UHGV virus genome: UHGV-0113213
Direction: 5' to 3' (one strand)
Source of the DNA: a virus
Length of the DNA: 52,407 nucleotides
The notes under the pieces were generated by a model that saw only the letters and a list, made by a program, of their open reading frames with translations, had not been told where the DNA came from and did no database searches. This document shows positions 6,800 through 42,477 of this stretch, piece by piece (the first letter of the stretch is position 1; each line of letters begins with the position of its first letter). The position numbers and the translations under genes were made by a program.

Positions 6800-7504
6800 T
6801 TAACCTACCTTGCTGGAACCAGGGAAACAGGAGATCGGCAGTGCTGCCGGACGCGGGAAACGCAAACGGCAACCGCTAAGGCGGTGGCTGCATTTGTCTA
6901 ACGTTGGGTCACTTGTTGGTGTATCTTTATCAGTTGCGACCGGGCCGCCAGAATACATGCACCCGTCGCCTCTGTATTGCCACTGACAAACGTCAGCAAG
7001 GATGGTGCGCCCTGGGATAACGGCTTTATCTGCATCAATTGGCGTTGACAATTCATATTGCACCTGATCCGCTGTTTCTTCGCTCATTGCTTCAACGACG
7101 TAAAAAGATACAGCCTCAATAGATGGATCTGCGTCTGGATTGCCGTTAGGGAAGTTAACGGCGTCCAGGTATTTAACCTCCACCTGGCGGCGCGTAACCT
7201 TCATGCCTCTTAGGTCGTTGAAATCGTTATTCATCCCCGTAATGAGTCCGCCGATGTTGGCTACAACCATTTGAGGGCGCGAATAAACGCCTTCGTTTTT
7301 CATTTCGAAGCCAGTAGCCTCGATCGGGTAGCTGTTGTAAGCCACACCCTTCCAGATAACCGGGCCGTAATAGCCATTCGCGCCGGAATGGAAGCGGATA
7401 ACCTCGCCACCCAGGGGCGTGAGGTCTAATTCAAACAAGTCAATTACCGCGCCGACTCCGGCATCGACGGAATCAATAATCATTTCTCTCGGAATATTGC
7501 GCAT
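6800..7504 (-). CDS. L: minor tail protein L-like
   Basis: Aligns with lambda gpL (LDAVNF.NGN, C.W.YRGD.C.YSG, DKCS..LSGC). Confidence 0.8.
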   Translation of the reverse strand: MRNIPREMIIDSVDAGVGAVIDLFELDLTPLGGEVIRFHSGANGYYGPVIWKGVAYNSYPIEATGFEMKNEGVYSRPQMVVANIGGLITGMNNDFNDLRGMKVTRRQVEVKYLDAVNFPNGNPDADPSIEAVSFYVVEAMSEETADQVQYELSTPIDADKAVIPGRTILADVCQWQYRGDGCMYSGGPVATDKDTPTSDPTLDKCSHRLSGCRLRFPRPAALPISCFPGSSKVG

Positions 7505-7522
7505 TTTCTCACCTTGTCATTC

Positions 7523-7558
7523 TGTGATCTGCGTCACGCTAAATCATACCAAAATGGA
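7523..7558. promoter_or_regulatory. CRP-like palindrome TGTGATCTGCGTCACG plus ATACCAAAATGGA motif
   Basis: The minus-strand reading gives TGgTATGAT, an extended -10 pointing into L. Confidence 0.4.
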
Positions 7559-7633
7559 TTGATCGCGGTTTTTACAATATGTATATTTTACTCAAACGGA
7601 AGCATAGTTAACAAAATGGCGCGGAGGTGCGTT

Positions 7634-7822
7634 ATGACTGAAAAGCTATGGAAGTTGACGGTATTCATGACAGACGGTAGGGAAAAGGTTATCGCCCTGT
7701 ATGACGACGAGGGTGAAGCATTGGTTGACGCGCTTTTACTTGCTGAGGATGACCGCCTTTTGGGATACCAGATCGAACCTGTCAAATATGAGGCTAACAA
7801 AAATGAAAAAATACAGTCTTGA
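7634..7822 (+). CDS. hypothetical small protein (moron gene A)
   Basis: GGAGG RBS. Paralogous to the N-terminal part of gene B (7803-8150). Confidence 0.5.
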   Translation: MTEKLWKLTVFMTDGREKVIALYDDEGEALVDALLLAEDDRLLGYQIEPVKYEANKNEKIQS

Positions 7823-8150
7823 TGTGTGGTTAAGTGGTAGCAAGGAGTGTTTCGGATTATTTGATAGCGAAGAAGTAGCCCTGGAAGAAGGCAGGATTCT
7901 TGAATGTAGTTTAGGCCATCCAGTGAAATATGCTGCTAATCCGGTACAGATAGTTGATGAGGTGGAAGATATGAACCCGAAAGATATTAATGGTAGCTTC
8001 ACTGCTTATTATGCAGATTCTATGGACCAGTCTTGCCCTGGTGAAATACACGCAAAAGGTTTCCCGGCTGACGATCCAGAAGCAAAACGCGAATACGAAA
8101 AAGCGGCGAAAGATTTCTGTATCGATAACCTTTCAGCATTCGATAAATAA
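7803..8150 (+). CDS. hypothetical protein (moron gene B)
   Basis: ATGA overlap with gene A; shares a ~50 aa domain with gene A. Confidence 0.5.
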   Translation: MKKYSLDVWLSGSKECFGLFDSEEVALEEGRILECSLGHPVKYAANPVQIVDEVEDMNPKDINGSFTAYYADSMDQSCPGEIHAKGFPADDPEAKREYEKAAKDFCIDNLSAFDK

Positions 8151-8159
8151 GGCGGCAAC

Positions 8160-8408
8160 ATGGGGCGGCGCAATCACGGTGATTATGTGTACACGTTGAA
8201 ACAGGCCGCCCGCCTCATCGGTTATCATGAACACGAATTTATTGATTTGCTGATTGAGCGCGGGATACTGTACCAGGTCTGTTTAACGCTGTACCCGAAA
8301 GCGAAATACCTACATGAAAAGTTATTCATCATCATGACGGATGAAAACCAGGTTAACCATTCATTCGTCACTGATAAGGGCGTTAATTATCTGCGTGATA
8401 ACTTATAG
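8160..8408 (+). CDS. hypothetical protein with possible HTH (moron gene C)
   Basis: YTLKQAARLIGYHEHEFIDLLIERGIL has a helix-turn-helix-like pattern. Confidence 0.4.
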   Translation: MGRRNHGDYVYTLKQAARLIGYHEHEFIDLLIERGILYQVCLTLYPKAKYLHEKLFIIMTDENQVNHSFVTDKGVNYLRDNL

Positions 8409-8534
8409 GTGACTGATTATAAAAATAAAAGTTTTGGCGCTAATAATAATGGGGTTGATAGTATTTGGCGTTCATGCTGTAGATCTGGACTGGAAAACGA
8501 TAGCAGAAAATATAGCATTAATGGAAATAGAATA

Positions 8535-8568
8535 AAAATAACCCCGCTTCGCGCGGGGTCGTGTTTAT
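8535..8568. terminator. bidirectional rho-independent terminator
   Basis: CCCCGCttcgcGCGGGG hairpin with flanking A/T runs. Confidence 0.7.
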
Positions 8569-8762
8569 ACGCCATCAACCAAAAATAAAACCTCCTTCCC
8601 TTCCCGGGATCTACACCCAACGTACCCATCACCAACGTCGTGAAGATACCATATATCGCCGTTGTCAGCTTTTACAGTAAGGTCGTTGATCTCATAGTCG
8701 TCAAACAATGTAAAAGCGTAAGTTTTGTCAACTACACAAGTCCCGTACATAACAACCCCCAT
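8565..8762 (-). CDS. hypothetical 65 aa protein
   Basis: TAATG coupling to M. Confidence 0.45.
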   Translation of the reverse strand: MGVVMYGTCVVDKTYAFTLFDDYEINDLTVKADNGDIWYLHDVGDGYVGCRSREGKEVLFLVDGV

Positions 8763-9115
8763 TAGCCAACAACTTGCTCAAACGTTGCGTTTAGCGTGTA
8801 CAAAGGCCCGTCTTTAGTCATACTCCATTGCCGACAGACAAAAAGCCTTTGCACGTTATCCATTGACGGCGACCAGTAAAAAGCCTCGACCGCGCCGCGC
8901 GCCCTCAAGAATGCTTCCGCCTGGATTGCTACGTTTCCACCATCACCACATCCGGCGCTACTGCCTTTAAACACCAGGGTGTAGCTATCAAGCAATGGAT
9001 TGATACCTTTTACCTGTCTTTGCTCATAACCATCGCCCAGCTTAACAACAGATACGTCTGGCTTCCTGGTCACGCTGTAGCTTCTTTGCGGCGTCCATCT
9101 GAACACTTCCGGCAT
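8762..9115 (-). CDS. M: minor tail protein M-like
   Basis: Aligns with lambda gpM (FRW.P....S....V.FGDGY.QR). Confidence 0.75.
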   Translation of the reverse strand: MPEVFRWTPQRSYSVTRKPDVSVVKLGDGYEQRQVKGINPLLDSYTLVFKGSSAGCGDGGNVAIQAEAFLRARGAVEAFYWSPSMDNVQRLFVCRQWSMTKDGPLYTLNATFEQVVG

Positions 9116-9129
9116 AAAACCCCCACAAG

Positions 9130-9172
9130 TTACATTTTGTATATATCTTTACGCGCTTCTACGCGAAAAATA
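9130..9172. promoter_or_regulatory. motif copy TTACATTTTGTATATA plus element TTTACGCGCTTCTACGCGAAAAATA
   Basis: The 25-bp element recurs with 2 mismatches at 21418-21442. Confidence 0.35.
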
Positions 9173-9200
9173 AGATCATTGTCACAATGATTATAGCTAG

Positions 9201-9213
9201 TTTACAAAATGGC
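9201..9213. promoter_or_regulatory. TTTACAAAATGGC motif copy
   Basis: Lies in the divergent region between M and the plus-strand moron. Confidence 0.35.
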
Positions 9214-9282
9214 TTCACATAGCACGCAACAAGATGTATATAGAAAGCAAGAAGAAAGTAGTACCAACGAAGGAGGCCCAAA

Positions 9283-9438
9283 ATGAAACGCTATGTAGTA
9301 GTAATGCTAAATAACGCATTCGAACAAGTGGAAATAGCAATCGTTAAGGGTTTCGACGACGCATTCAAATACGGTCAATTCATGATGAATGCGAAAGAAG
9401 ATGAATACCGGGACTTCTTCCTGAAGGCACTTAACTAA
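9283..9438 (+). CDS. hypothetical 51 aa protein (moron)
   Basis: Strong RBS GAAGGAGG; below the 60 aa ORF-track cutoff. Confidence 0.5.
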   Translation: MKRYVVVMLNNAFEQVEIAIVKGFDDAFKYGQFMMNAKEDEYRDFFLKALN

Positions 9439-9455
9439 GGATGATGGGGTGAGTT

Positions 9456-9710
9456 ATGAAACTGGTAGCGATTGACAGAAATCTGAAAGCACAGAAAAAC
9501 GCACAGGACCGGATCATCAAGAAAGGTAAGGAATTACTTAAAGCCTTTCTGAGAAAAGAAGTTTACCCCAAAAAGTTACGCGACGGTTACGGATACAAAA
9601 TGGATATCAATCTTGATTGGAGGCTGTTTAGCGAAGATTTGAAGGTTTGGTTAATTGTTGAGCACCGTGCCTATAACAAGTTATGTGGCGTGAAAGGCAC
9701 TCATAAGTGA
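9456..9710 (+). CDS. hypothetical basic 84 aa protein (moron; possible toxin-like partner)
   Basis: RBS present; K/R-rich; paired with the preceding gene. Confidence 0.45.
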   Translation: MKLVAIDRNLKAQKNAQDRIIKKGKELLKAFLRKEVYPKKLRDGYGYKMDINLDWRLFSEDLKVWLIVEHRAYNKLCGVKGTHK

Positions 9711-9764
9711 GTCGAGATATTCGAAAGGGGATATATCGCGCGGAATGGTCGTTTATAAATACGA

Positions 9765-9795
9765 AAAATAACCCCGGCATTGCACCGGGGTTTAG
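9765..9795. terminator. bidirectional rho-independent terminator
   Basis: CCCCGGcattgcaCCGGGG hairpin followed by a T-run. Confidence 0.7.
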
Positions 9796-9796
9796 T

Positions 9797-12139
9797 TTAT
9801 TTGCGGCGAGGTTGCAACATTCCGCCTGGTCTTTGAGATTCCCTTGTTATCATTTTCATGGCTACACGTTCCATTGTTAATTCAAGTCTGCGGCTGTCTT
9901 CGTCGCTGAATCCGTTCGTGGTCTGAATGCTGATACTGACAGGCATACTAATACCGCCACCGCCGCCAATATCACGGCCCGGAATAACTCTGCCGTTCTC
10001 GCCAGGGATCATATATTGATTGCCGTTAGATGTCTGGAATAGCTCCGGCCTGTTGTGTTCCCCTACGCGGTACATATTACCACCAATGACGCTACCACCA
10101 TTAAAGCGACCGCCGCCGAAAATTGACGTAGCCAGCGACATGATCGCAGTGAGCGCCGCCGAACCAGCCGCCGCCCAGCTACCGCCAGTTGACGCCGCAG
10201 TTGCCGCCGCTGCTGGGGCCGCCGCCGCAGCAATGCTTCCCTGAGCTGCTACCGCGCTTGCTGTTGTACTTGTTTGCGTGGCCTTGCTTTGTGTCTCCAT
10301 CATGATCTGATCTGCTATCCAGTTTGCAGCTATGTCTGAGAGTCTGTTACCGATATTGCCGAGTATATTGCTTCCTAAGTTAGCAAAAACATCACTCAAT
10401 GATTGAGTGCCGTTTAACAGGCCAACAAGCGCATTACTCATTCCGCCTTTAAGGCCATTAACACAATCACCGATAAGGCCGTTTGTGTCGCTTTGCGCCT
10501 GCCATTGTTCCCATTTCAGATCGCGGATCTGTTGCTCATAGGCTAACAATTCCTGTTTCTGTTGCGCTTCAGTAGCGCCCAGGTCTATAAGCATTTGCTT
10601 ACGGATGGCCCATTCATTTTGCGCCTGCTGGATGGGGTCAACTTCGCCTTTTAGCTGATCCATCGGGCTTACTATTTGTGACCATTTATCACGCAATTCA
10701 TCTACCGGAATTTGTGCTAATTCTTCTTTCAGTTCCTTGCCGATCCCTTTTTGCGCGGCGCGGTACTCAAGGAGCGTGATTTTACCCTGGGCAAATGCAG
10801 CATCAATGGCCTTGCCGTTCTCCAACGCTTTGCGCATGGCGGCGGCGTCTTTGTTGTACTGATCAGAAACGCTTATACCTTTGTCACCAAGCCGATCAGC
10901 TTCCGATTTCTTCTCTTTTTTCTGTTTTTTCGGCTTGTCTACTGGCTTGTCGAATCCGGTAATCGCTCCGTCATTGGCAGCATTCTGTTCATTTTTCCTT
11001 GCTTCTTCTGTAGCCTGGATTGCTGCGGTCAGATCATCCTGTAGTTGCATGACCTTGCCAACGGTCTTCCCGTATTTCTTCTCGTAGTTGCTGTTATATT
11101 CGTCGGTTTGCTCTCCTACTACCTCCTTCATCCATTTATAGCCATCCATTAGCGCCTTGATTGGCGTCACCATTGCGATGATCTTCTCTGCCACCTCTCC
11201 AGCCTTAACAGCCACATCATCAAACATGTCGATAAATTCGCTACCAGCCGTTTTGAGTGTGTCGAAGCAGGTTTTAGCGAATTTAGCGCCATCGCCAAGC
11301 CCTTTAACGCCTTTCGTGATCAAGTCGATAGCTGAAACAACGCCATCTGACACGCCAAAAAGATCATCCAACTGCTCAACAAGGCCCATAATTTCTACTT
11401 TAAGCTCATTGATAGCCATGCCGGATGTGCGCGGCAACTGAGCAAACTTATCGTTTGTTTCCTGCGTAGCCGCCTGTATTGCGTTAACCATCCTTTCAGC
11501 CGTGATCTTGCCGTCCAGCATTTCGGCGCGGAACTGGCCCATTGATAATCCCATATGGCGGGCCATTGTTTGTACGATGGTCGGCGTATTTTCAAGCAGG
11601 CTGTTAAATTCTTCGGCACGAAGAACACCGCCGTCGATAGACTGACGGAATTGACGCATTGAGTTAGACATCTGTTCCGCTGACGCGCCGCCTAATGCAC
11701 CCATTTTCTGAATAGTGCCAACCAGGTTAAGCAATTGCCCTTCCGTAGCGGAGGTGTTTTTTAGTGAGATAGCCAGGCCTTGCCATAATTCGCCAGTATC
11801 TTTCAGGCTCTGCCCCGTCTCCCTGGATATTGCTTTCAGGCCGTCGAAAACCCGTCCGGCGGACTCCGCATCGCCCGTAAGCATTTTGATTTTTACGCGA
11901 AGCATTTTTGCTTGCTCCGCCATATCCATAAATTGGCGCACAGCCTCCGCAGCAATTAGCAGATGGATAACCCTGGTCAGTGCCTTGATGGATGTTTTCA
12001 GGGTGTTTACCTGGCGGTCAGCCTGTTTTGCGCCGCGCTCTATACGATCAAAGGCCTGGTCTGCCTGTCGTTGTGCAACGAGAAGTTGACCAGTTTTCGC
12101 ATCAACTTCGTAATAAATTGTACCTACACTGGTAGCCAT
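9797..12139 (-). CDS. H: tail tape measure protein
   Basis: 780 aa, long alpha-helical region, Gly/Ala-rich C-terminus; sits between chaperone and M. Confidence 0.85.
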   Translation of the reverse strand: MATSVGTIYYEVDAKTGQLLVAQRQADQAFDRIERGAKQADRQVNTLKTSIKALTRVIHLLIAAEAVRQFMDMAEQAKMLRVKIKMLTGDAESAGRVFDGLKAISRETGQSLKDTGELWQGLAISLKNTSATEGQLLNLVGTIQKMGALGGASAEQMSNSMRQFRQSIDGGVLRAEEFNSLLENTPTIVQTMARHMGLSMGQFRAEMLDGKITAERMVNAIQAATQETNDKFAQLPRTSGMAINELKVEIMGLVEQLDDLFGVSDGVVSAIDLITKGVKGLGDGAKFAKTCFDTLKTAGSEFIDMFDDVAVKAGEVAEKIIAMVTPIKALMDGYKWMKEVVGEQTDEYNSNYEKKYGKTVGKVMQLQDDLTAAIQATEEARKNEQNAANDGAITGFDKPVDKPKKQKKEKKSEADRLGDKGISVSDQYNKDAAAMRKALENGKAIDAAFAQGKITLLEYRAAQKGIGKELKEELAQIPVDELRDKWSQIVSPMDQLKGEVDPIQQAQNEWAIRKQMLIDLGATEAQQKQELLAYEQQIRDLKWEQWQAQSDTNGLIGDCVNGLKGGMSNALVGLLNGTQSLSDVFANLGSNILGNIGNRLSDIAANWIADQIMMETQSKATQTSTTASAVAAQGSIAAAAAPAAAATAASTGGSWAAAGSAALTAIMSLATSIFGGGRFNGGSVIGGNMYRVGEHNRPELFQTSNGNQYMIPGENGRVIPGRDIGGGGGISMPVSISIQTTNGFSDEDSRRLELTMERVAMKMITRESQRPGGMLQPRRK

Positions 12140-12159: not shown

Positions 12160-12219
12160 TGTGATCTGTGTATCTATTTTATACAAAATGGCTTTACTTC
12201 AACGACTCCATTTTGTATA
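12160..12219. promoter_or_regulatory. CRP-like half site plus 40-bp palindrome TATACAAAATGG-N16-CCATTTTGTATA
   Basis: Candidate promoter TTTACT-N17-TATAAG driving the lipoprotein gene at 12267. Confidence 0.45.
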
Positions 12220-12266
12220 AGGAAGCTAAAGGGAATGGTCAGTAAATCAAGTTAGCGTGGTGGGTT

Positions 12267-12926
12267 ATGAAACGGTTAGCAAAAGTGGCAATGATTGCGG
12301 CGGTATTGGGTCTGGTTGGTTGCAATGAGGATAATGAAAAAGCGCCTATAGTGACCAATCAAGAGCAACAAGCATTAGTAGAGAAAAATGCTAAATGGCT
12401 TGCAGAACAACAAGCAAAACAAGCCGCATACGATGCACAGTTAGAAAAAGAAAATGCTGGTAAACAGTGGCTTGTAGTTGAAAGAAAAGATGATATGCAG
12501 GACGCAAAAAACGTATTCCTTTTTGTGAAAGCAGAACAATTCAGCGGAAGTCTTGATGCTTTCCCGACACTGAAGGCACAGGATAAGAATAAACCGGTAT
12601 TAACAATCGCTTGCCAGGGTAATAAAACAAAAATGTTCGTAGCATGGTCACACCATGTAACTGACGCCGGGGACACTACTTATATTAACTACCGGATCGG
12701 CGTTCACAAAGCTGTAGCTACTGAGTGGTGGCGGTCAACTAATTATAAAGCTCTTGGATTATGGGACGGCAAAAAAGCCATCCCAATGATTAAAAAACTG
12801 GTTAACGAAAAACAATTCATCATTGAAGTAGTGCCGGAAGCTGGCGACATTGAGAAAGCAGTGTTTAACATTGATGGTCTTTATAACCACATCGACAAAG
12901 TGAAAAACGCTTGCAACTGGAATTAA
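12267..12926 (+). CDS. lipoprotein (moron)
   Basis: Signal peptide plus LVGC lipobox. Confidence 0.6.
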   Translation: MKRLAKVAMIAAVLGLVGCNEDNEKAPIVTNQEQQALVEKNAKWLAEQQAKQAAYDAQLEKENAGKQWLVVERKDDMQDAKNVFLFVKAEQFSGSLDAFPTLKAQDKNKPVLTIACQGNKTKMFVAWSHHVTDAGDTTYINYRIGVHKAVATEWWRSTNYKALGLWDGKKAIPMIKKLVNEKQFIIEVVPEAGDIEKAVFNIDGLYNHIDKVKNACNWN

Positions 12927-12936
12927 GGGGTAAATC

Positions 12937-13311
12937 ATGAAAAAAATAATCAAAGCGGTTCTCATTGGTGTTATGGCTTTAGCTCTTACAGGGTGCGCAA
13001 GATCAACTGATTTCGTTAAGTTAGCTGATAAAAATTTGCAAGTTGGAATGACTTGTGAGCAAGTGAATAAAATAATGGGGGAACCACAAAGAATCGAGCA
13101 TGACGGTAATTATAGTTATCACGTATGGTATTCAGTAACCAGCACGATAGGATTTACTTACATGGATGTTGAAGAATTATCCCCTTCAAGGGTTATCGCA
13201 AAGTTTGATAACTGCATCCTAAAAGAATGGAAAGATCGCAGTAAGGCAAAGTCTGTATACAATACAATCACACACAGTTCACCAGGTACAGCAATTAAAG
13301 ATTTCAATTAG
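12937..13311 (+). CDS. BamE/SmpA-OmlA-like lipoprotein (moron)
   Basis: LTGC lipobox; GMTCEQVNKIMGEPQ resembles the BamE motif. Confidence 0.5.
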   Translation: MKKIIKAVLIGVMALALTGCARSTDFVKLADKNLQVGMTCEQVNKIMGEPQRIEHDGNYSYHVWYSVTSTIGFTYMDVEELSPSRVIAKFDNCILKEWKDRSKAKSVYNTITHSSPGTAIKDFN

Positions 13312-42349: not shown

Positions 42350-42387
42350 TTGACTCGCAATATACGCCCCGTAAAACATCGAGTCAA
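42350..42387 (-). promoter_or_regulatory. pL candidate TTGACT-N17-TATATT inside an inverted repeat TTGACTCG-N22-CGAGTCAA
   Basis: Near-consensus sigma70 promoter on the minus strand. Motif copy TCCATTTTGTATAC lies just upstream. Confidence 0.5.
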
Positions 42388-42477
42388 TCCATTTTGTATA
42401 CTTTTTTAAAATATTTTATATGCCATTGATATTTAAATAATAAATAACGTTTTCTGTTTACGTTTTGGTGTTTTCCA

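Follow-up and report, generated by a model that had tools for sequence, protein, structure and literature searches.

This report concerns a cassette of three small plus-strand genes, A, B and C (7634–8408), in the virus genome UHGV-0113213, a stretch of 52,407 nucleotides (nt) that was analysed as a whole and is called the window here. We read the cassette as an autonomous moron, transcribed from a sigma-70 promoter of its own (P_A) that is boosted by the host regulator CRP in complex with cyclic AMP (cAMP–CRP), with C as an effector and/or autoregulator and A and B as diversifying binders in conflict. This reading is tentative, and we give it a little less than an even chance. The anatomy of the cassette, its conservation, the domain identities of its products and the statistics of its motifs are observed; its activity is inferred.

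By sequence identity, the window is assigned to the mEpimmI group as an mEp021-like temperate coliphage. The 1.4 kb around the cassette are 99.6–99.9% identical to prophages of seven complete Escherichia coli chromosome records (e.g., strain M1/5) and 83–88% identical to the cultured phages mEp021, mEp010/013/044/515/554 and MagusPhagus. The mEpimmI phages are Nus-dependent, non-lambdoid temperate coliphages, and their reported frequency in human faecal E. coli equals that of lambdoid phages (PMC11893012). In total, 49 related loci were collected, namely five annotated records and 44 IMG/VR contigs, and in all 49 the genes A, B and C occur in the same order between the tail genes L and M. The genes are intact in 50 of 50 loci, in which the interval holding the cassette measures 1199–1894 nt, and the cassette is fixed across the group. 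It is antisense to the late tail operon and convergent with it; the GC content of 7600–8500 is 0.41–0.46, compared with 0.49–0.53 in L and 0.52 in M, and the GC skew flips sign.

An earlier annotation of the window (the original prediction) had already proposed a moron between L and M. The strand, the separation of M from L, the low GC content, the conserved predicted promoter and the terminator all speak for this view, but the element is fixed in its group and not sporadic. Its place between L and M holds in all related loci, except that a 65-amino-acid (aa) gene on the late strand abuts the stop of M, so the cassette is not directly adjacent to M.

The operon is fixed in all mEpimmI phages, yet the existing GenBank and RefSeq names for its genes are limited to "hypothetical" or "putative antirepressor", and a KilAC-like gene has already been listed among the mEpimmI near-core genes. 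What is new here is the likely relationship between the domains of A and B and the probable fusion in B, a contrast in evolutionary rates, a decayed fourth gene (D), and a CRP-type promoter module common to accessory cassettes. If our reading is true, it would provide a function for the stand-alone KilAC proteins of enterobacterial prophages, bring two orphan fast-evolving families among the candidates for phage–host conflict, and show a temperate phage placing several of its accessory cassettes under the host's regulator of catabolite repression.

Predicted promoter, CRP-like sites and terminator

No other non-coding stretch of the locus is as conserved as the 129-bp spacer between L and A, of which 36 distinct sequences were compared. 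In these relatives the hexamers of P_A and their fixed 17-bp spacing are almost invariant, and the same layout is common to eight other predicted promoters of the phage. The predicted start lies near 7594, where host sigma-70 RNA polymerase would begin transcription.

Upstream of P_A lies the palindrome TGTGATCTGCGTCACG, which fits nine of the ten core positions of TGTGA-N6-TCACA. It lies just outside the interval 7546–7621, in which the original prediction had placed promoter-like motifs, and was overlooked there, as were the remnant of D and the 65-aa gene next to M. Conserved TGTGAT...TCAC half-sites around a free 6-bp centre, as seen in the relatives, are the footprint expected of a CRP site. 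The centre of the palindrome is about 63.5 bp upstream of the predicted start, or 62.5 bp in relatives with a 1-nt deletion. Class I CRP promoters, for which lac P1 is the paradigm, have the site centred at −61.5 (or −71.5, −82.5 or −92.5). P_A resembles them in having TGTGA-N6-TCAC(G/A) about 60 bp upstream and an A-rich tract before the −35 hexamer, and it differs in the predicted centre of −62.5 to −63.5. In our reading, cAMP–CRP at 7523–7538 would stimulate P_A in class I fashion, with the A-rich TACCAAAATGG as the docking site for the C-terminal domain of the RNA polymerase alpha subunit. Under carbon limitation the operon would then be active in the prophage, and possibly also at an early stage of infection.

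P_A is not the only promoter with such a site. The pattern TGTGA-N6-TCAC[AG] occurs four times in the window against 0.15 expected, and degenerate copies are found at 590–605 (TGTGATCTGTGTTACA) and 12160–12175. When nine predicted promoters of the phage were aligned on the −10 hexamer, the CRP-like centre fell 59.5–63.5 bp upstream of the start, itself a prediction, in five of the nine (at −59.5 to −60.5 in the sister promoters of P_A). The copy at 590–605 is about 41 bp upstream of the predicted start before a lipoprotein gene, a class-II-like position; distances of 59.5–63.5 bp and about 41 bp correspond to class I and class II sites, respectively, of promoters that depend on CRP. Three of the CRP-like sites are kept in mEp021. 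These patterns suggest a link of several phage operons to host cAMP–CRP, or to a phage factor of the same specificity. The paper on the mEpimmI group makes no mention of CRP (PMC11893012).

The motif abutting the −35 hexamer (TACCAAAATGGA in P_A) has a second copy, TAACAAAATGG, at 7609–7619 in the 5′ untranslated region. The two form a direct repeat with a spacing of 62, and both fit TA(A/C)CAAAATGG. A palindrome covers the −10 hexamer and is a candidate operator; it lies inside the nearly invariant block TTTTTACAATATGTATATT(T/G)TACTCAAA, is a perfect 8-2-8 repeat in about half of the relatives, and has a single copy in the window. By eye, no LexA box was seen in P_A. Palindromes like those of the PR-like promoter are absent from P_A, and the repressor's own operator was not identified.

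The related 10-mer TACAAAATGG is enriched in the window, with 26 copies (at most one mismatch) against 5.8 expected. It lies directly 5′ of the −35 hexamer in six predicted promoters, and its reverse complement lies directly 5′ of the −10 hexamer in six; inverted pairs spaced exactly 16 bp apart were found twice. It is also the sole element common to both early promoter regions that flank the CI-like repressor gene. The 10-mer could be an UP element, a part of the promoter core (the −10 element) or a repressor operator.

At its downstream end the operon is closed by a hairpin (8541–8559), which supports, on both strands, the bidirectional terminator that had been proposed at 8535–8568. The hairpin folds with minimum free energies of −16.3 kcal/mol (plus strand) and −17.7 kcal/mol (minus strand), with z-scores of about −2.4 to −2.8, and the equivalent element of mEp021 is annotated as terminators on both strands. 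In both cassette terminators of this region (8540–8560 and 9770–9792) the U-tract is stronger on the late (minus) strand, and late transcription that is not antiterminated by Q should thus stop before it enters the cassettes in antisense. The terminator would in this way both insulate the operon and stop non-antiterminated late-strand transcription, while Q-antiterminated late transcription would read through the cassette in antisense and silence the operon.

The products of A, B and C

The three predicted plus-strand genes hold up well: ORFs (open reading frames) of 62, 115 and 82 aa are present, and RefSeq and GenBank annotate A, B and C identically in near-identical prophages and in mEp021. 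Pairwise ratios of non-synonymous to synonymous polymorphism (pN/pS) were calculated over 28–39 distinct alleles per gene (32–39 for A, B and C; Table 1), and since they are 0.13–0.34 for these three, A, B and C are all coding and under purifying selection. It is hardly credible, then, that the cassette is passenger DNA, decaying or without function, in which ORFs have survived by chance. The start codon of D has been lost in this clade and A carries an unconserved read-through tail, as such an account would have it, but it is contradicted by three genes intact in all 50 loci, by the pN/pS values and by the almost invariant promoter.

Selection is far from uniform along the operon. The non-synonymous rate of A and of the N-terminal half of B is 4–6 times that of C, of the C-domain of B and of the tail proteins. 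At least four classes of A and at least five classes of the B N-domain exist, and nearly all combinations of them are found (distance correlation 0.31), from which it follows that they are shuffled independently by recombination. Co-variation of A with the B N-domain was considered as a sign of interaction and rejected, as the alleles recombine freely (r=0.31).

Gene A consists of a conserved core (residues 1–51) and an 11-aa tail that is clade-specific and unconserved. A 51-aa form of A, which ends in "...EPVK", is found in 21 of 46 relatives, with its stop 10–12 nt ahead of the start codon of B; at the TGA of this shorter form the 62-aa form has two additional nt (TA). The 62-aa ORF does exist here, as had been stated, but its conserved part is the 51-aa core. 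An overlap of A and B by ATGA, also claimed, turned out to be wrong: B begins with an ATG at 7803, in another frame than the stop of A (7820–7822), which makes the overlap 20 nt.

In B, residues 1–50 form a variable, A-like beta-beta-alpha-beta N-domain, which is followed by a variable linker and, at residues 73–115, by a conserved acidic C-domain (SMDQxCPGEIHAKGFPADDP...EYEKAAKDFC). AlphaFold models the N-domain confidently as beta-beta-alpha-beta (predicted local distance difference test, pLDDT, about 90) and leaves the C-terminal half poorly defined. The original prediction had called the shared domain of A and B paralogous, and the similarity is indeed present. BLASTP aligns A with residues 1–50 of B at 18 of 52 identities (35% over 52 columns, E=7e-5). 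Against a hidden Markov model (HMM) built from 31 B N-domains, the core of A scores 11.1 bits, which none of 2000 shuffles reached; 17 of 17 members of the A family score 5–11.7 bits, and unrelated small ORFs score at most 0.8. With hhalign, A 6–51 aligns with B 4–49 at E=5e-4, but with a probability of just 31%. The reverse test is weak, as 61 of 2000 shuffles reach the score, and a search of the B-family profile against 1.84 billion representative proteins gave 16 matches, none of them from the A family; for these two reasons we regard paralogy as likely, though short of proof.

The C-terminal half of B also exists as stand-alone 56-aa proteins (P0087 and P0088). P0087 sits in a run of small ORFs on an unrelated phage contig, near which no gene with a Pfam annotation such as KilAC was found. 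Inside B, all alleles have at 7960–7973 a conserved sequence like a Shine–Dalgarno element, (A/G)AGGTGGAAGA, followed by an invariant ATG (7971–7973, Met57). On this pattern, B is probably an in-frame gene fusion, and it may also give rise to an internal 59-aa product. Two homologues of A (WP_086611599.1 and WP_085654716.1, from loci L003 and L004) are called "transporter" in RefSeq. The A proteins are 51–62 aa long, acidic and soluble, with no hydrophobic segment and no family match, and the name looks like an annotation artefact.

For A and B, no functional family was found in Pfam, NCBIfam, PADLOC, PHROGs, the sequences of the PDB or the profile search of 1.84 billion proteins; the searches returned just function-unknown PHROGs and members of the same narrow family of E. 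coli phages. A, B and C have no match to toxin–antitoxin (TA) families in PADLOC, NCBIfam or Pfam.

Gene C is better defined. An HTH-like (helix-turn-helix) segment had been noticed in it, and this observation is confirmed by Pfam PF03374 (KilAC), which matches C at E=1.1e-6 and 29.4 bits (curated threshold, 25.3). The match pairs residues 10–82 with positions 23–105 of the 108 in the profile, and the RefSeq name agrees. The AlphaFold2 model of C (pLDDT 86) superposes on solved winged-HTH (wHTH) domains of the MerR/excisionase type. C consists of the KilAC domain alone, with no KilA-N, Bro-N, AntA/B or Rha domain at its N-terminus, and is for this reason better called a KilAC-domain protein than a classical two-domain antirepressor. 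Outside the group it is closest to the C-termini of Rha/Ant proteins with two domains (32–38% identity). As the conserved active component of the operon, C would feed back on the −10 palindrome, or act on a conserved host protein, or both. The second route is proposed by analogy with other KilAC domains, which block division or growth or damp the SOS response. CreP, an isolated KilAC domain, causes bacteriostasis and filamentation and shows weak co-immunoprecipitation with FtsZ (bioRxiv 10.1101/2024.01.05.574328); the KilAC domain of AriS inhibits the SOS response (PMC9043618); and that of phi11 Gp07 is reported to inhibit growth in E. coli (PMC5944126). No literature on KilAC together with anti-defence was found.

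The two-domain architecture bears on a further alternative, in which C is an antirepressor that binds the CI-like repressor and ties induction to cAMP–CRP, and hence to starvation, instead of to SOS, with A and B as modulators. The mEp021 orthologue of C is labelled a putative antirepressor in GenBank, KilAC occurs in P1 Ant and KilA-type proteins, and P_A has a CRP-like site and no LexA box. Lysogens of the mEpimmI group are, moreover, reported not to be inducible by ultraviolet light, and their repressor has no Ala-Gly site for RecA cleavage (PMC11893012). We nevertheless consider this switch improbable: C has no counterpart of the N-terminal domain of two-domain antirepressors, an antirepressor constitutively activated by CRP would destabilise lysogeny, and nothing ties C to the repressor.

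Table 1. Coordinates of the features of the cassette, its promoter region and its surroundings in the window, with pN/pS where calculated
Feature	Coordinates	Strand	Details	pN/pS
CRP-consensus-like palindrome TGTGATCTGCGTCACG	7523–7538		half-sites nearly invariant, 6-bp spacer varies (36 distinct relatives)	
TACCAAAATGG motif abutting −35 (TACCAAAATGGA in P_A)	7547–7557	plus	UP-element-like or protein site; nearly invariant	
Promoter P_A (predicted)	7559–7587	plus	−35 TTGATC 7559–7564, 17-bp spacer, −10 TATATT 7582–7587; consensus scan and conservation	
Palindrome TACAATAT-GT-ATATT(T/G)TA over −10	7573–7590		candidate operator; invariant block in alignment	
Gene A	7634–7822	plus	62 aa, acidic; phrog_29559, function-unknown family	0.31
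Gene B	7803–8150	plus	115 aa; phrog_38567, function-unknown family	0.34 (whole gene)
B residues 1–50				0.43
B residues 51–72				0.46
B residues 73–115				0.14
Gene C	8160–8408	plus	82 aa; stand-alone KilAC/ANT domain, MerR/excisionase-like wHTH fold	0.13
Gene D remnant (probable)	8419–8535	plus	small hydrophobic peptide (MKIEVLALIIMGLIVFGVHA...); ATG is ATA (8419–8421) in this clade	
Bidirectional intrinsic terminator	8540–8560		GC-rich hairpin 8541–8559, T/A tracts on both sides	
65-aa late-strand gene	8565–8762	minus	phrog_3249, orthologue of mEp021_70; conserved; abuts M stop	
L	6800–7504	minus		0.07
M	8762–9115	minus		0.12
Tape measure H	9797–12139	minus		
82-aa lipobox lipoprotein (...LTGC...)	722–970	plus	downstream of J; unit 590–995	
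51-aa ORF	9283–9438	plus	phrog_29810; unit between M and H (9203–9792)	
84-aa ParE-like toxin	9456–9710	plus	PF24732, E=2e-11	
VasI-like protein	12267–12926	plus	PF11319, E=1e-15	
Lipoprotein/BamE-like protein	12937–13311	plus	124 aa; low-GC island 12160–13311 upstream of tape-measure gene	
CRP-consensus palindromes (TGTGATC-N4-xTCACx)	7523, 12160, 28659, 34923, 38326 (and 590)		upstream of predicted promoters	
TACAAAATGG (examples)	7547, 7609, 9203, 12182/12208, 28618/28644, 34882/34947, 38285, 42389, 43232			

Likeness to known systems

The cassette qualifies as a moron in the sense of Hendrix and falls within none of the known TA or defence families. The morons of lambdoid siphophages, from which the concept of Hendrix and Juhala comes, include HK97 gp15 in the tail-gene region and lambda lom and bor. 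Like them, the cassette is an extra unit between late genes, with a predicted promoter and a terminator of its own, a deviating composition and presumed expression in the prophage. Unlike them, it comprises three to five genes and not one, is fixed in its group, converges on the late operon and has a predicted CRP input; in place of a membrane or exclusion protein it encodes orphan acidic proteins and a KilAC protein. Within this unit A and B would serve as acidic single-domain binders in conflict between host and phage or between phages, and in B an A-like recognition domain that varies would be joined to a constant one, which may contact C or a conserved target.

Another known system with which the cassette can be compared is the acr-aca operon. 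Both have small acidic genes of variable sequence upstream of a small, conserved HTH gene, an inverted repeat that overlaps the promoter, and a place among structural genes. Were the cassette of this type, A and B (with the genes inserted in some relatives) would inhibit host defences early in infection, and C would be an Aca-like autoregulator that turns off the strong promoter through the −10 palindrome. The small acidic genes upstream of a highly conserved wHTH gene, the insertion slots on both sides of C, the inverted repeat at −10 and the likeness of P_A to the early N-operon promoter are consistent with this account. It is unlikely all the same, if worth weighing: A-B-C is universal in the group and present in every member, not patchy; it carries a CRP-type site; the fold matches are within noise; and no match to known anti-defence or Aca families was found (no dedicated library was searched). 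The CRP wiring and the convergent, terminator-insulated place among lysogeny-type morons, moreover, fit prophage expression better.

A third comparison is with CreP of Acinetobacter baylyi. Like C, CreP is a single KilAC domain with no N-terminal DNA-binding domain (103 aa, compared with 82 aa for C), and its motifs "AKxLxL" and "TxKG" have counterparts in C (AARLIG and TDKG), a likeness seen at the level of motifs. The settings differ: C is encoded in the tail region of a phage, downstream of two acidic proteins in one operon, whereas CreP belongs to a CRISPR-Cas locus, where a CRISPR-like RNA represses it. On this model the operon would be a TA or abortive-infection system: C would be a CreP-like bacteriostatic toxin neutralised by the C-domain of B, the A-like domains would sense phage or stress and release C, and A would be a free decoy or co-sensor. 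Such a scheme would suit the toxicity and filamentation caused by stand-alone CreP, the order of antitoxin-like small acidic genes first and effector last, the constant-plus-variable architecture of B, the ParE-like toxin pair in the neighbouring cassette, and the candidate palindromic operator, a feature typical of autoregulated TA operons. Several facts make it rather unlikely, however. A, B and C match no TA family or PADLOC model; antitoxins normally co-evolve with their toxins, whereas here C is almost invariant and A and the B N-domain change without regard to it; and the C-domain of B is also found alone in another phage, with no Pfam-annotated KilAC gene nearby. A broader version, in which the operon is a new growth-arrest or abortive-infection system of the prophage, with a KilAC effector C held or steered by B, in which a hypervariable, freely recombining recognition domain is fused to a constant one, the free paralogue A as co-sensor or decoy, and cAMP–CRP wiring shared with other cassettes, seems to us distinctly doubtful.

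The remaining relatives of C share PF03374 with it, namely P1 KilA and Ant1/2, Listeria AriS (PMC9043618), phi11 Gp07 (PMC5944126) and the Rha/Ant proteins of Vibrio and Cronobacter phages. These two-domain proteins have KilA-N, Bro-N, AntA/B or Rha at the N-terminus and are encoded in early or immunity regions, whereas C is the bare C-terminal domain.

Several points weigh against a CRP-boosted, prophage-expressed moron. The first concerns P_A, which does lie within the promoter-like motifs that had been predicted at 7546–7621 and is near-invariant in relatives; but a promoter scan of the window returned 6 sites, compared with 5.3 in shuffled sequence, so that support for P_A comes from its conservation and not from the scan, which is at chance level. 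Relative to the canonical −61.5, the CRP-like site is shifted upstream by about 2 bp, and the −10 palindrome by itself is statistically unremarkable. The promoter of the N-like antiterminator operon (42359–42399; TACAAAATGGA-TTGACT-17-TATATT-gcgagTCAAAGGAAG) and P_A (7547–7601; TACCAAAATGGA-TTGATC-17-TATATT-ttacTCAAAcGGAAG) share CAAAATGGATTGA, TATATT and a similar sequence after the −10 hexamer, and they look like copies of one module. The N-operon promoter must be off (repressed) in the lysogen, and P_A, being built like it, could be repressor-controlled and early instead of prophage-expressed. As for the products, the known KilAC activities come from distant proteins, none of them close to C; A and B are without informative homologues or folds in sequence and fold searches; and any contact between B and C is purely conjectural. 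The N-operon promoter lies between the two arms of an 8-bp inverted repeat, TTGACTCG...CGAGTCAA.

Surroundings of the cassette and its sister units

The tail genes of the minus strand follow the lambda order, with H, M, the 65-aa gene and L, and then K, I and J. In lambda, M and L are neighbours; the order here is H-[cassette]-M-gp70-[A-B-C]-L-K-I-J. A search of 7300–9900 against Rfam gave no RNA family.

Downstream of C, about 30 of 50 loci (including relatives L001, L003 and L012–L035) have gene D (38–49 aa, MKIEVLALIAMGLIVFGVHA...), which starts with ATG in 25 of those and has two C-terminal variants. In the clade of the window the start is ATA, and 8419–8535 is thus probably a remnant, in which an ORF from TTG 8434 remains. 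The locus also has two insertion slots. The slot between B and C holds a 75–80-aa gene in some relatives (it is filled in L001, L004, L025, L036, L042, L043 and L048), and in L048 it contains HNH-endonuclease-like ORFs or fragments. The slot after C holds 67-aa and 58-aa genes (L004, L018–L024 and L029–L033), in addition to D.

A-B-C is one of four plus-strand units that are convergent on the late operon, at least three of which end in a bidirectional terminator. The GC content is 0.37–0.46 in the A-B-C, ParE-like and VasI-like units, compared with 0.49–0.53 in the tail genes. The sister units encode classes of protein typical of prophage expression and share promoter motifs with A-B-C, which tilts the balance towards prophage expression of A-B-C as well.

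In the unit between M and H, the predicted promoter is TACAAAATGGC-TTCACA-17-TATATA (9203–9242) and the bidirectional terminator lies at 9770–9792. Its 51-aa ORF and ParE-like protein are probably a TA pair. The 51-aa protein was considered as a third paralogue of A and the B N-domain and was rejected (BLASTP E=7.9; at most 0.6 bits with the HMM). The VasI-like unit has a symmetric divergent promoter region, TACAAAATGG-N16-CCATTTTGTA (12182–12217). A lipoprotein of the type encoded downstream of J has been shown to mediate superinfection exclusion in the mEpimmI group. The lipoprotein unit also contains an 8-bp inverted repeat at 644–671 and shares a terminator with J at about 968–995.

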